Positions 4,785 through 10,571 of a stretch of 64,000 nucleotides of DNA are shown here, in pieces. The stretch is from a virus (lineage: Duplodnaviria > Caudoviricetes). The DNA lies in IMG/VR virus record IMGVR_UViG_3300043427_002668. One strand, written 5' to 3'. The notes below the pieces were generated by a model, which did no database searches, was not told where the DNA came from, and worked only from the letters and a program-made list of their open reading frames with translations. The number at the start of each line of letters is the position of its first letter. Within the stretch, counting starts at the first letter, position 1. A program made the translations under genes and the position numbers.

Positions 4785-6029
4785 ATGGATGAATTTCAAC
4801 TTGAAGAACTGCAAAAGTCAAATCAGCAAATACAGGATACTATCCCTTATGATCCTAATGCTGCATCTAGGTATCCTAATGGATATACACCTGTAGGAAT
4901 TGGTGAAGATAATACTCCAGTCGAACAGGTTGATCCTGTAAACGTTCCTGAAGTAGAAGTAACATCTCCAATATTAAACGACATTATTCCTCAGGACGTT
5001 TATGGGTCTTCTGGGGACAATATTTCCTTTGCGAATAGAAATATTCCAGAGATTGAAAATACAAGAATAGATTCAACAACTCCTATAAGAAACGCAAATG
5101 TCGTTATTAGCAGTTTACCTGGGAATAATATTGTTCCTGATAGTTCTAGCAATAGTGATGGACCACCTATCGAAGAAGATGTGGTAGATCCTCCAGTTGA
5201 TCCAGAGCCTCCTGTAGACCCCCCAGTTGATCCTGAAGATCCACCACCACCTCCACCACCTGAAGAACCTGAAGATCCAGAGGAACCTGAAGAACCTGAA
5301 GAACCTGAAGATCCAGAGGAACCTGAAGAACCTGAAGAACCTGAAGATCCAGAGGAACCAGAGGAACCAGAAGATCCTGAAGATCCTGAAGATCCAGAGG
5401 AACCTGAAGAACCTGAAGATCCAGAGGAACCTGAAGATCCAGAGGAACCTGAAGAACCTGAAGATCCAGAGGAACCTGAAGAACCTGAAGATCCAGAGGA
5501 ACCTGGTGGGGGTAATCCTGGTAATGATAAAGATGTAGGCAATTCCCCTTGGGATGGTGAGACAGGAGCATCAGACAATCCAGGCAAAGGTAATCACCAA
5601 GATGGACAAGATCCCGAACCAAACCAACCTCCAGGCGATTCAAAGAATGATGGAGGACAAAATAATGATCCAAAAGATCCTCCTGGTAATGGAGGAAATG
5701 CTGGAAATGGTGGAGGAAAACCTGATGAACAGCAAAATAATGGATGGGGGAACGGAGATGATGATGCTCCAGGTAATTCCCTCAATCACAATAACGCTGA
5801 AAATGATCAGTCTCCAAGTGAACATTATGATGATTTTGTTGGAAGATTCTTAGAAGAAAATCCAGTAGATCTAAATGTTATTAATACTCACGAAATTCCT
5901 AACGAGCATCCTCTTGATAATTTTGATACTCATATTCCTGATGTTGTATTAGATAATCTCCCAGAGGTTCACTTCGATCACTTTGATCTTCCTACAGATC
6001 ATTTCGATCACGGACCTCATAGTATGTAA
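4785..6029 (+). CDS. acidic low-complexity Pro/Glu-repeat protein
   Basis: 414 aa with a PEEPED array, Gly/Asn-rich segment and His/Asp-rich C-terminus. ATAAATA lies upstream. Confidence 0.75.
   Translation: MDEFQLEELQKSNQQIQDTIPYDPNAASRYPNGYTPVGIGEDNTPVEQVDPVNVPEVEVTSPILNDIIPQDVYGSSGDNISFANRNIPEIENTRIDSTTPIRNANVVISSLPGNNIVPDSSSNSDGPPIEEDVVDPPVDPEPPVDPPVDPEDPPPPPPPEEPEDPEEPEEPEEPEDPEEPEEPEEPEDPEEPEEPEDPEDPEDPEEPEEPEDPEEPEDPEEPEEPEDPEEPEEPEDPEEPGGGNPGNDKDVGNSPWDGETGASDNPGKGNHQDGQDPEPNQPPGDSKNDGGQNNDPKDPPGNGGNAGNGGGKPDEQQNNGWGNGDDDAPGNSLNHNNAENDQSPSEHYDDFVGRFLEENPVDLNVINTHEIPNEHPLDNFDTHIPDVVLDNLPEVHFDHFDLPTDHFDHGPHSM
5259..5504 (+). repeat. coding tandem repeat of 9-nt units (CCTGAAGAA / CCTGAAGAT / CCAGAGGAA)
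   Basis: Directly visible; encodes PEE/PED triplets. Confidence 0.95.
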
Positions 6030-6358
6030 GGATACGCAATACCTTCATTTAACATTCTTTCATTTACAGTGACTGGATCTCCAACACAATAAAGAACTCC
6101 AAGTATTCTTCCGTACTTGTCTTCTTTATGTGTTTCGATAATCCAGTCACCTTCTCTTGCAAGTTCTTTTTCTAACCAAAGTCTTGCATCAATACCTTTT
6201 TTCTTTTCTTCTAAGTCTTTAGTTCTTGTCTCTGCTGCATCAATATCTTTGAGACGAACTCTTTGTCTGAGTGTAATGCTAAATCCTAAATCAATATCAA
6301 CGTCAACAGTGTCTCCATCAATGACCCTGTGAATCTTCTTTATTTTGTACTGATACAT
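6017..6358 (-). CDS. thermonuclease (SNase-like) family nuclease
   Basis: RVIDGDTVDV, RVRLKDIDAAE and DKYGRILG motifs. ATG 6358 has an AGGA RBS; an alternative start at 6451 adds a hydrophobic N-terminus. Confidence 0.85.
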   Translation of the reverse strand: MYQYKIKKIHRVIDGDTVDVDIDLGFSITLRQRVRLKDIDAAETRTKDLEEKKKGIDARLWLEKELAREGDWIIETHKEDKYGRILGVLYCVGDPVTVNERMLNEGIAYPYIL

Positions 6359-6454
6359 TTTCCTGATTTGCGATGAGTAGGATTTTGTAGATAGCCCAAG
6401 CAACACCAACCAAACAAATACCAAGAAGAATATTAACAGACCAAACGACATCTT

Positions 6455-6826: not shown

Positions 6827-6867
6827 CATCAACGGGTTAAGAAATGTAACAGGTTCTTAATCTTTGT

Positions 6868-6985
6868 GCTCCCGTTAACCGAGACCTATGGGAGGGTAAA
6901 TCACGTCTCTCATACCCACACTGGAGGGTGGTGTGGGGAATATTGTAACATCCAGAACCCCCTGGACTTTTACTTACCCTTTAAC
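6868..6985 (+). ncRNA. PhotoRC-II-like cis-regulatory RNA in psbA 5' UTR
   Basis: ACCGAGAC...GTCTCTCATA...GAGGGT pattern and hairpins (CCCACAC/GTGTGGG, TCCAG/CTGGA) upstream of a cyanophage psbA. Recognised from memory of the motif; boundaries approximate. Confidence 0.65.
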
Positions 6986-6990
6986 GAAAA

Positions 6991-8070
6991 ATGACTGCTA
7001 CAATTTCACAACAACGTTCTACTTCCACTTGGGATCAATTCTGCGAGTGGGTTACTTCAACGAACAACCGCCTCTATGTTGGTTGGTTCGGTACTCTGAT
7101 GATTCCAACGCTGCTTGCCGCAACGATTTGTTTCATCGTCGCCTTCATTGCTGCACCTCCTGTAGACATTGACGGCATCCGTGAACCAGTTGCTGGTTCG
7201 CTAATGTACGGAAACAACATCATTTCAGGTGCTGTTATTCCTTCAAGCAACGCCATTGGCTTGCACTTTTATCCCATCTGGGAAGCTGCCTCTCTTGATG
7301 AGTGGCTTTACAACGGTGGTCCTTACCAACTGGTAGTCTTCCACTTCCTCATCGGTATTTTCTCTTATATGGGACGTGAGTGGGAACTCTCCTATCGTCT
7401 TGGTATGCGTCCTTGGATTTGCGTAGCATATTCTGCACCTGTTGCTGCTGCTACTGCTGTTTTCCTGGTTTATCCTTTCGGTCAAGGTTCTTTCTCTGAT
7501 GGTATGCCTCTGGGTATCTCTGGTACTTTCAACTATATGCTTGTGTTCCAGGCAGAGCATAACATTCTGATGCACCCCTTCCATATGCTTGGAGTTGCTG
7601 GTGTCTTCGGTGGTTCTCTGTTCTCTGCGATGCACGGTTCACTGGTGACTTCCTCGCTGGTTCGTGAAACCACTGAGAATGAGTCGCAGAACTATGGTTA
7701 CAAGTTCGGTCAAGAAGAAGAGACTTATAACATCGTTGCCGCACACGGTTACTTTGGTCGTCTGATCTTCCAATATGCTTCGTTCAACAACTCTCGTTCG
7801 CTGCACTTCTTCCTCGCTGCCTGGCCCGTTGTAGGCATCTGGTTCACTGCTCTTGGTGTTTCTACGATGGCTTTCAATTTGAATGGTTTCAACTTTAATC
7901 AAAGTATTGTTGATAGTCAGGGTAAGGTAATCAATACCTGGGCTGATGTACTCAACCGTGCCAATCTCGGGATGGAGGTGTCCCATGAGAGAAACGCACA
8001 TAACTTTCCATTGGATCTTGCAAGCGTAGAAGCAACTCCTGTTGCTCTTACCGCTCCTACAATCGGTTGA
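6991..8070 (+). CDS. psbA: photosystem II D1 protein, intronless, Glu130 high-light type
   Basis: Full D1. D61, Y161, D170, E189, H190, H332, E333, H337, D342 and A344 are present; residue 331 is Ser. Confidence 0.99.
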
Positions 8071-8091
8071 TAAAAACTTCATAAGTTTTTT

Positions 8092-8117
8092 AGAGACCCG
8101 AAAGGGTCTCTTTTTTT
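8092..8117 (+). terminator. psbA terminator
   Basis: AGAGACCC-GAAA-GGGTCTCT plus a T-run. Confidence 0.9.
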
Positions 8118-8124
8118 ATAAATA
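8117..8124 (+). promoter_or_regulatory. T4 late promoter of homing endonuclease gene
   Basis: TATAAATA. Confidence 0.8.
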
Positions 8125-8150
8125 AGTATAGAAAATAAGCATTACAAAAA

Positions 8151-8522
8151 ATGAAAGTTTGTTCTAAGTGTAATCAATCTCTACCAGAAAGTTCTTTTCA
8201 TAAACGAACTTATTCTTCTGGTAGTGTTGGGTTGCAACCAAAATGTAAAAAGTGTTCTACTGAAAATCGTAGGCAATACTATAAACCTCACGAATTTATG
8301 CGTAGGAAGTTCAAACTTACCGAACAGCAATACGCAGAACTTATGAAAAATGAGAACTGTCAGATATGTAATGTGGAACTAACAAAGAAATGTATAGACC
8401 ACTGCCACTCTACAAATAAGGTTCGCGGTGTCCTCTGCAATAACTGCAATACTGCACTGGGTCTTGTTGGAGATAATATTCAAACACTTCAAAAAATGAT
8501 TGAATATCTAAATGCTTATTGA
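8151..8522 (+). mobile_element. free-standing homing endonuclease, EndoVII fold (F-CphI-like)
   Basis: CSKC/CKKC zinc pairs, CQIC, IDHCH, VRGVLCNNCNTALG; located directly downstream of psbA like F-CphI of S-PM2. Confidence 0.8.
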
Positions 8523-8575
8523 TATAAAACTTAATAACTGATATAATTAAGAGGGTATAACAACCCTCTTTTTTT

Positions 8576-8848
8576 ATGCTTTATCTTTTCTCAAAAACGG
8601 AATGCGGTCCTTGTATTCTAGTCAAAAAGTATTTCAAAACGATGAATGACCCAAGGACAGAACAAATTAAAGAAATTCTTCTTGATGATGGATGTGCCGA
8701 AGAAGATCTTCAATTTGCTAAAAAATATGGAGTTACCGCAACTCCTACTCTTCTAGTCATTAAAGATGATGAAGTAATCGAAGAGTATATTGGTGGAGTT
8801 CCTATTACACAGAACATTACCAAGATTTTAGGTAACTATACTGATTGA
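8576..8848 (+). CDS. thioredoxin-fold protein
   Basis: CGPC active site and YGVTATPTL. Promoter TTGATA-17-TATAAT at 8519-8547. Confidence 0.85.
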   Translation: MLYLFSKTECGPCILVKKYFKTMNDPRTEQIKEILLDDGCAEEDLQFAKKYGVTATPTLLVIKDDEVIEEYIGGVPITQNITKILGNYTD

Positions 8849-8878: not shown

Positions 8879-8901
8879 TTACAAATCATTACGGAGGATT
8901 G

Positions 8902-9963
8902 ATGGTTTCGTCAACACTTTCACAACCAATTTCACAAAGGGGGTGGTTCGATGTCTTGGATGACTGGCTTAAACGAGATCGCTTTGTATTTGTGGGCTGG
9001 TCTGGACTACTTCTTTTTCCCACTGCTTATTTGGCCCTTGGTGGCTGGCTTACTGGCACAACGTTTGTTACAAGCTGGTACACCCACGGGTTGGCGTCTA
9101 GTTACCTTGAGGGTGCTAATTTCCTCACAGCAGCTGTTTCGACGCCTGCAGATGCTATGGGTCATTCTCTTCTTCTACTTTGGGGTCCTGAGTCTCAAGG
9201 GGATTTCGTCAGGTGGTGCCAACTTGGGGGACTCTGGACTTTTGTGGCGCTCCACGGAGCCTTCGCTCTTATAGGTTTTATGCTTCGACAGTTTGAGATT
9301 GCTCGTCTTGTAGGCATCCGTCCTTACAATGCAATCGCATTCTCTGGTCCTATCGCTGTATTTGTTTCTGTATTCCTGATGTATCCACTGGGTCAATCCA
9401 GTTGGTTCTTTGCTCCATCCTTTGGTGTTGCTGCTATCTTTAGGTTCCTTCTGTTTCTTCAGGGTTTCCACAACTGGACCCTCAACCCCTTCCATATGAT
9501 GGGAGTTGCTGGTATACTGGGTGGAGCACTGCTCTGTGCGATTCATGGAGCAACTGTAGAAAATACATTATTTGAAGATGGCGAACAAGCAAACACTTTC
9601 AAGGCATTTGAACCGACTCAAGAGGAAGAGACTTATTCGATGGTTACTGCAAACCGATTCTGGTCGCAGATTTTTGGAATTGCTTTTTCCAATAAGCGTT
9701 GGTTACATTTTTTCATGCTTTTTGTTCCCGTTATGGGTCTCTGGACTAGTTCTATTGGCATTATTGGTTTGGCTCTCAATCTTAGGGCCTATGATTTTGT
9801 AAGTCAGGAAATTCGTGCTGCGGAAGACCCGGAATTTGAGACATTTTACACAAAAAATATATTATTAAACGAAGGCCTCCGTGCTTGGATGGCTCCTACA
9901 GATCAACCTCACGAAAACTTCCAGTTTCCTGATGAAATATTGCCGCGAGGAAATGCTTTATGA
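8902..9963 (+). CDS. psbD: photosystem II D2 protein
   Basis: Full D2 ending PRGNAL; GGAGG RBS (start at 8899 TTG or 8902 ATG). Confidence 0.99.
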
Positions 9964-9986: not shown

Positions 9987-10571
9987 ATGCTAATGGTTTG
10001 GAATAAAGGATTAAAAAATGACCCCCGATTAAAAGGGGGTCGCCCTAAATCAAGTCTCTCATATGTCGGTCAGACTTGTGGGAGACTTACTATTTTAGAA
10101 CAGTATAGTGATAAGAAAAGCATTTATTTTAAATGTGAGTGTGAATGTGGTAATATAAAGGACAAAATTCGTAAGGATTATATAATAGGATCTAAAGCAG
10201 AAATAAAATCTTGTGGATGTAGATTAAAAGAACTTCATCAAGAAAGGAGGGAGAAAGGTATTGATGAAGTATCTGCCATGTGGTCTAGAGCAAAATATAG
10301 AGCAAAGCAGAAAGGATTAGACTTCGCAATAGAACAAAAAGATATTATTATTCCAGATAAGTGTCCTCTTCTTGGAATACCATTAGAATGTCATCGTGGT
10401 AAGGGAAGTCAGCAAGGAAATTCTCCATCTTTAGATCGTATTGACCCCTCAAAGGGATACATAAAAGGTAATGTGTGGGTCATAAGTAATAGAGCAAACA
10501 CTCTCAAAAATGACGCCACCCTACAAGAACTTCAAACACTTTTAGAAAACCTCAAATTTTATGTCTCATAA
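9987..10571 (+). mobile_element. free-standing HNH-like homing endonuclease
   Basis: WNKG N-terminus, GRLT...CECECGN...SCGC, and C-terminal SLDRIDPSKGYIKGNVWVISNRAN. Confidence 0.75.

Follow-up and report, generated by a model that had tools for sequence, protein, structure and literature searches.

[quoted passage not shown] The window analyzed here is a stretch of 64,000 nucleotides taken from a 95.9-kb IMG/VR record (IMGVR_UViG_3300043427_002668) of a T4-like freshwater cyanophage, which is estimated to be ~48% complete and to which isolated phages show only ~76% identity. The psbA gene of the window shows 80–84% nucleotide identity with the psbA genes of Synechococcus phages. Most of what follows comes from comparing it with L109 (IMGVR_UViG_3300046777_002703), an environmental close relative with the same locus but without the nuclease gene. 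The features of the locus are as follows.

6857..6951, + strand: PhotoRC-II element of the psbA leader, already known from phage psbA genes (RNA motif RF01717 of Rfam, 80 bits, E 1.8e-13)
6991..8070, + strand: psbA (D1, 359 aa), intronless
7861..8066, + strand: divergent psbA 3' tract, codons 291-359, putative co-conversion tract
7972..8001, + strand: codons 328-337, variant form of the region presumed to be the nuclease target, inside the 60-bp F-CphI substrate
7981..7983, + strand: codon 331, TCC (Ser for Met), beside the Mn ligand His332
7990..7992, + strand: codon 334, AGA, whose 3' edge is the insertion site of the S-PM2 group I intron
8067..8519, + strand: endonuclease cassette, ~453 bp, absent from L109, its ends ambiguous within ~20 nt
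8092..8117, + strand: hairpin with a T run, resembling a terminator, within the cassette (psbA terminator of the donor type)
8117..8124, + strand: TATAAATA, T4-type late-promoter motif, 26 nt before the nuclease ATG
8151..8522, + strand: EndoVII-type homing endonuclease gene, free-standing, F-CphI / DHHRN family, 123 aa
8549..8577, + strand: native terminator, common to the window and L109
8576-8848: thioredoxin-like gene, between the nuclease gene and psbD
8899-9963: psbD, 3' of the thioredoxin-like gene
9987-10571: free-standing 194-aa endonuclease-like gene directly 3' of psbD, HNH-related (phrog_3322, E 4e-38)

The last of these ORFs has no match with ORF180 of S-PM2; it lies beyond the reach of L109, whose sequence stops within psbD. 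On the other side of psbA, upstream and on the - strand, a 144-aa gene (6017-6451) encodes a staphylococcal-nuclease-like protein (E 3e-10 to Pfam SNase) whose N-terminal part includes a hydrophobic segment, and ~90% identical DNA is found in L109.

The preliminary description of this DNA had placed an EndoVII-type endonuclease, kin to F-CphI of phage S-PM2, immediately behind psbA. Both points are borne out: the ORF at 8151-8522 is intact, lies behind TATAAATA, and matches Pfam Endonuclease_7 (PF02945) with an E value of 3e-18 over residues 50-121 of 123, as well as phrog_2633. BLASTP against F-CphI gives 31% identity over residues 2-123 (E 8e-19), i.e., a full-length relationship, N-terminal region included. 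Residues C70/C73, D83, H84, H86, R92, C96/C99, and N100 are conserved and make up, in the C-terminal part of the protein, the CX2-4C ... DH(D)H ... R ... CX2C-N catalytic motif of the DHHRN family, while in the N-terminal part C4, C7, C32, and C35 are invariant. The F-CphI residues matching D83, H84, H86, R92, and N100 were shown to be essential (PMC6083498), and by this comparison the catalytic residues of the window nuclease are intact. Among solved structures, the best relative is Hpy99I (PDB 3fc3/3gox). The 3fc3 chain aligns with residues 2-123, nearly the whole query (E 1e-6), and the alignment takes in the catalytic core. Hpy99I is, however, a restriction enzyme with a paired methylase, whereas the window nuclease has no linked methylase and sits in a mobile cassette. 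Since it is only 31% identical to F-CphI, the window nuclease has a putative target, deduced from its context.

The psbA gene that precedes the nuclease changes character toward its 3' end. Its 11 Arg codons are CGT (nine) and CGC (one), AGA being used only at codon 334, so that a count codon by codon upholds the earlier statement of CGY in 10 out of 11. Codon 331 is TCC, differing from ATG at 3/3 bases, and D1 reads MEVSHERN, as had been reported, at a position where Met is near-invariant (114/117 randomly hit IMG/VR psbA genes). The atypical codon choices described for this region are also there: the sole GGG codon of the gene is codon 327, and TTT339, CCA340, and TTG341 follow in the same stretch. 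When scored on the usage of codons 1-290, codons 291-359 have a codon adaptation of -0.87, which is beyond the within-gene range (-0.33 ± 0.10 for windows of the same length inside the gene, with a minimum of -0.49); the psbA 3' end of L109 scores -0.45. An Rfam search finds no group I intron in this psbA, which is a single open frame of 359 codons. Logan contigs from two freshwater metagenomes cover 7846-8121 with zero differences from the window, although they possibly come from the source sample and are then not independent.

The comparison with L109 shows both an insertion polymorphism and a tract boundary. Over codons 1-290, the two psbA genes are 93–97% identical, and over codons 291-359, only 72–76%; base by base, the mismatches are ~5% over 7001-7850 and ~27% over 7851-8067. 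The breakpoint falls at 7861, within 12 bases of position 7873, where the anomaly had been said to start. L109 lacks the ~453 bp of the nuclease cassette (8085-8518 are missing from it), and the flanks of this optional gene are 96% identical, the identity being restored from 8519 onward. The divergent tract abuts the cassette on its left side, and none is present on its right side, as is expected of co-conversion. At codons 328-334, L109 has ATG GAA GTG ATG CAT GAG CGT, i.e., the canonical sequence. Cassette-less forms were also encountered in Logan freshwater contigs, with joints 8066->8519 and 8072->8526, one of them in a run that also contains the filled form; this observation is consistent, though weak, because the short sides of these joints measure only 28-30 letters. 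Among 98 full-length psbA genes, no second filled/empty pair as clean as that of the window and L109 was found.

The cassette has a layout of its own. Direct repeats are found at its ends (8073-8084/8526-8537 and 8108-8119/8566-8577), and psbA and the nuclease gene share the same 3' arrangement, TGATA-AAAACTT-ATAA, a hairpin, and CTCTTTTTTTAT (8067-8119 vs 8519-8577). The cassette is thus flanked by two diverged copies of a psbA 3'UTR/terminator, and it is this direct repeat that makes the insertion boundary ambiguous within ~20 nt. The late-promoter motif is not peculiar to the window: a [T/A]ATAAATA motif stands ~33 nt 5' of the start in 30/41 distinct upstream regions of homologues, F-CphI included.

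We also followed the best match of the window along the locus. It is L109 up to 7860, L024 over 7861-7940, L224/L028 over 7941-8060, L002/L005 over 8061-8180, and L109 again from 8501. All the best matches inside the divergent tract are endonuclease-bearing loci, and the tract is contiguous with the cassette, which points to the recoded segment being an imported tract, itself a mosaic. As the 3' end of L109 fits the codon usage of its own gene and that of the window does not, the foreign tract would be the one in the window. To judge from these comparisons, the psbA 3' tract is the footprint of homing with co-conversion, imported with the cassette and not changed in place. The direction of the event (probably a gain in the window and not a loss in L109) rests on codon usage, with no outgroup. 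Moreover, since psbA genes of this phage group generally diverge more at their 3' end than in their middle, part of the contrast between the window and L109 is background rate variation. The preliminary description had supposed that this phage recoded its own target. The variant target is indeed present, but L109 and the best matches indicate that it was not made in this phage and arrived as a foreign mosaic tract.

Homologues 63–91% identical to the window nuclease are found directly 3' of psbA in ~40 IMG/VR loci and in phage S-SKS1. Some of these loci (L003, L007, L023, and L026) have an intron in psbA, and the intron-bearing alleles keep the canonical exon ATG GAR GTN ATG CAY GAG CGT. Three insertion sites are used: one splits codon 331 (between AT and G), one follows codon 334, and one is located around codon 336/337. 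Intronless endonuclease-bearing alleles whose other Arg codons are CGN show AGR334 in 21/26 cases, and such alleles are also found with L or F at position 328, or with S, I, V, or Q at position 331. By comparison, AGR334 occurs in ~10/45 CGN-preferring psbA genes without a close-clade nuclease. Among 46 psbA-adjacent nucleases placed in a tree, L026 and L023 have identical proteins, beside a codon-331 intron in the former and a codon-337 intron in the latter, and a nearly identical nuclease lies, in L024, beside LEVM and AGA. From these sequences, intron and substitutions look like interchangeable protections for a single enzyme. There are, on the other hand, about four other-clade EndoVII homologues beside CGY334 (L100, L171, L200, and L044/45), three of them with fully canonical codons 328-334 and L044/45 with L328. 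We considered that the homologues beside canonical sites might be catalytically dead and rejected this idea, since only L145 is degenerate and these four are intact. The simple rule thus does not hold for all homologues.

Several psbA genes of this set are more complex. In L004, L009, L010, and L042, several group I introns interrupt the gene, near codons 61, 185, 298, 331, and 334. Site 334 hosts two unrelated introns, the S-PM2 type in L042 and a type beginning with TTTGTGAACGC in L003, L005, L007, L009, and L043. In other contigs (L011/L213, L013, L126, L206, L265, L268, and L269), an EndoVII-type gene is carried on the opposite strand and ends at, or overlaps, the psbA 3' end. Further endonuclease-like ORFs, of the HNH with NUMOD3, weak HNH, and HTH/NUMOD3 types, are located behind psbA genes with S, V, or Q at position 331 (L221:2925-3497, L207:182-796, L226:288-923, L212:10717-11397, and L172:6570-7226). 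Several nuclease families may converge on the same psbA stretch.

How rare is the replacement of Met331? Three exhaustive pattern scans of IMG/VR returned only 53 contigs with another residue. In genome_contigs, where each species has one genome, a scan for 331 codons not starting with A returned 18 contigs, mostly with the FEVL of Leptolyngbya-type genomes. The cell genomes with a non-Met331 (L236 and others among L237-L253) have either MEVQ, in a Synechococcus MAG (L236, on a 2.1-Mb contig), or FEVL, in ~15 Leptolyngbya-type genomes, and all of them have CGY334. Two short contigs with a cyanophage-type psbA, L242 (Acidibacter MAG bin) and L250 (Microbacteriaceae bin), probably represent phage DNA that was binned with bacterial MAGs by mistake; the nuclease of L242 is 89% identical to F-CphI.

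Ser331 is rare but recurrent, with 12 alleles including the window. The TCC alleles are those of the window, of nine IMG/VR contigs, and of the "Acidibacter" contig, and AGC is used in one contig (L269). Both codons are found beside EndoVII genes, and Ser331 arose at least twice. The possibility that all TCC alleles are recent copies was rejected, for they differ from one another at synonymous sites, both in the core and around it. All 12 S331 alleles have AGR334. Downstream of psbA, they have an EndoVII-type gene in eight cases (from at least four clades), an HNH-NUMOD3 gene in one case, and no endonuclease gene in three, which are near-identical contigs. Hence, the co-occurrence of S331 and endonuclease that the preliminary description called for is found insofar as an endonuclease gene adjoins 9/12 alleles, but S331 is not specific to the nuclease of the window. 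Of the two, AGR334 is the broader mark. It is present in ~43/53 of the non-Met331 alleles. Alleles with AGR334 or S331 and without a nuclease gene may have lost this gene after fixation.

Endonuclease genes 3' of psbA are, more generally, strongly associated with variant codons at 328, 331, and 334. An endonuclease-like ORF lies downstream of psbA in 25/35 non-Met331 alleles, against 10/99 in a random sample of Met331 alleles; when only ORFs supported by Pfam or homology are counted (EndoVII-type and HNH-NUMOD3), the figures are 13/35 and 10/99, shared ancestry being ignored in both comparisons and the endonuclease query set being partly drawn from the variant sample itself. The ORFs behind the variant psbA of L217, L226, L230, and L211 belong to no clear family by Pfam or PHROG and enter only the looser count of 25/35. 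A purine is found at the third base of codon 334 in 26/30 endonuclease-positive haplotypes vs 38/99 negative ones (p 2.5e-6, shared ancestry again ignored). Within codons 326-343, amino-acid changes occur only at the two Met codons, 328 and 331. As Met is the only residue there with a single codon, and all other positions have synonymous codons, this is the pattern expected from selection on the DNA sequence.

These observations can be assembled into the following scenario. A relative of the window nuclease would have cut a canonical psbA near codons 328-337, and the break would have been repaired from the genome of a phage carrying the nuclease. The repair would have copied the ~453-bp cassette, with its own terminator, late promoter, and nuclease gene, together with the last ~210 bp of the donor psbA. 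This donor tract would have brought the variant target, i.e., TCC331 for ATG, AGA334 for CGY, and many synonymous changes. Such a target most likely renders the carrier refractory to its own and related enzymes, and it would stand in for the role played by the intron in S-PM2. Since only ATG encodes Met, any alteration of the DNA there changes D1, which is how the amino-acid change would arise. The site of cleavage, the immunity of the carrier, and the drive of the window nuclease are the predicted parts of this scenario. Group I introns normally require a U at the 5' exon end. With AGA, the T just before the intron site is lost, so the AGR allele should likewise be ill-suited to receive the intron.

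To our knowledge, F-CphI is the only homing endonuclease of a cyanophage to have been characterised, and its protection comes from an intron. S-PM2 practises collaborative homing, in which a free-standing nuclease is associated with a protective group I intron (PMC6083498); in the window, the target gene of the carrier has no such intron. Like the window nuclease, F-CphI (Fang et al. 2018, PMC6083498) carries a Cys4 region at its N terminus and an EndoVII motif (D, H, H, R, N) at its C terminus. Its gene is located directly 3' of psbA and before psbD, with a terminator and TATAAATA upstream, and the same psbA stretch is concerned. The order psbA, F-CphI, ORF178, psbD of S-PM2 is also that of the window. 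Apart from the 31% identity, the differences lie in psbA, which is intronless in the window and whose presumed target would be altered by substitutions, one of them non-synonymous. The substrate used for F-CphI was a 60-bp S-BM4 oligonucleotide (Fang et al. 2018, PMC6083498), and it is solely through this substrate that the F-CphI cleavage region is placed here. The oligonucleotide corresponds to psbA codons 325-344, in agreement with the earlier statement that F-CphI acts in this region of psbA; the window differs from it at 19/60 positions and L109 at 5/60. The intron of S-PM2, previously given as near codon 334, maps exactly between CGT (Arg334) and AAT (Asn335).

Intronless homing by free-standing endonucleases is described for SegF, SegG, and MobE of T-even phages (Belle et al. 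2002, Liu et al. 2003; via PMC6083498, PMC3037559). As far as these systems are presented there, they share with the window an optional endonuclease gene between conserved genes, a polymorphic target next door, and the co-conversion of flanking markers. In the same accounts, their fold is GIY-YIG or HNH, whereas it is EndoVII here, and the presumed target belongs to an auxiliary gene of photosynthesis. The window variant alters a residue beside a metal ligand, and the case for the window is a comparative one. We infer that the window combines an F-CphI-family nuclease with the substitution-type immunity of the T-even Seg/Mob enzymes, in place of the intron of S-PM2. A literature search that did not extend to Zeng et al. 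2009 returned no description of substitution-protected psbA alleles or of endonuclease-linked D1 replacements.

Other readings of the locus have to be weighed. Ordinary mosaic recombination could have brought in the psbA 3' end with the nuclease, S331 and AGA being neutral passengers and the true target or immunity determinant lying elsewhere, e.g., in the intergenic region. The general hypervariability of the psbA 3' end in this group would suit such an origin, and so would the several sources of the window tract, the intact homologues beside canonical sites, and the occurrence of S331 without an endonuclease gene. We nevertheless consider it improbable, because the tract starts ~120 bp 5' of the known family target and stops at the cassette, after which the identity is 96%, and because the variants cluster at the codons where relatives have their intron sites and show an association with several families of endonuclease genes. 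That the protein is a phage junction resolvase or another housekeeping nuclease, and not mobile, is scarcely credible. It is the sole Endonuclease_7 match in the 95.9-kb record (itself only ~48% complete), and it has a late promoter, as does T4 gene 49. However, the gp49-type architecture, with an N-terminal catalytic and a C-terminal dimerisation domain, is not found here, the motif being C-terminal. F-CphI and Hpy99I align over the whole length, while the T4 EndoVII match is confined to residues 55-106 (E 0.007). The architecture is that of the 'endonuclease clade' of Fang et al. 2018 (PMC6083498), and the gene is missing from the same locus in L109.

The replacement could also be an adaptive D1 variant, in which the oxidation-prone Met328 and Met331 of the C-terminal tail are exchanged for the sake of PSII performance during infection, the linkage to the endonuclease being incidental. 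M328 and M331, beside H332, are reported sites of oxidation and photodamage (PMC13478394), and oxidation data are all that we found in the literature on D1-M331 mutants. Ser arose twice, with different codons, and the L331 of Leptolyngbya-type cells and the Q331 of the Synechococcus MAG indicate that position 331 tolerates change. Yet the replacements travel with the synonymous AGR334 and with endonuclease genes, they are absent from the intron-protected alleles of the same nuclease family, and the two single-codon Met positions are the only ones to vary in the region, as selection at the DNA level predicts. For these reasons, we regard an adaptive origin as very unlikely, and homing of the nuclease with a protective variant target stays our preferred reading.

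A broader reading, for which we see the chances as even, is that the psbA stretch of 25 bp encoding D1 residues 328-337 is a battleground of selfish elements, where three intron sites coincide with the targets of no fewer than two nuclease families, EndoVII-type and HNH-NUMOD3, and perhaps of others. Escape would then repeatedly force the replacement of M328 or M331, beside His332 and Glu333, ligands of the Mn4CaO5 cluster, and Ser331 would have arisen twice in this way.

The window thus extends the F-CphI story, as the same family would also use the classic substitution route and identical enzymes adjoin either solution. The filled allele of the window and the empty allele of L109 form a natural pair for mapping a new specificity, with codons 331 and 334 as the predicted resistance positions. 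For diversity studies that use psbA as a marker, mosaicism of the 3' end driven by nucleases is to be expected. D1-M331S, as well as the L, V, I, and Q replacements, are natural variants of interest for the oxygen-evolving complex. In one of the most conserved segments of photosystem II, a non-synonymous change may be imposed by a selfish element and, if this is true, selfish DNA shapes the sequence of the water-splitting site of phage-encoded D1.
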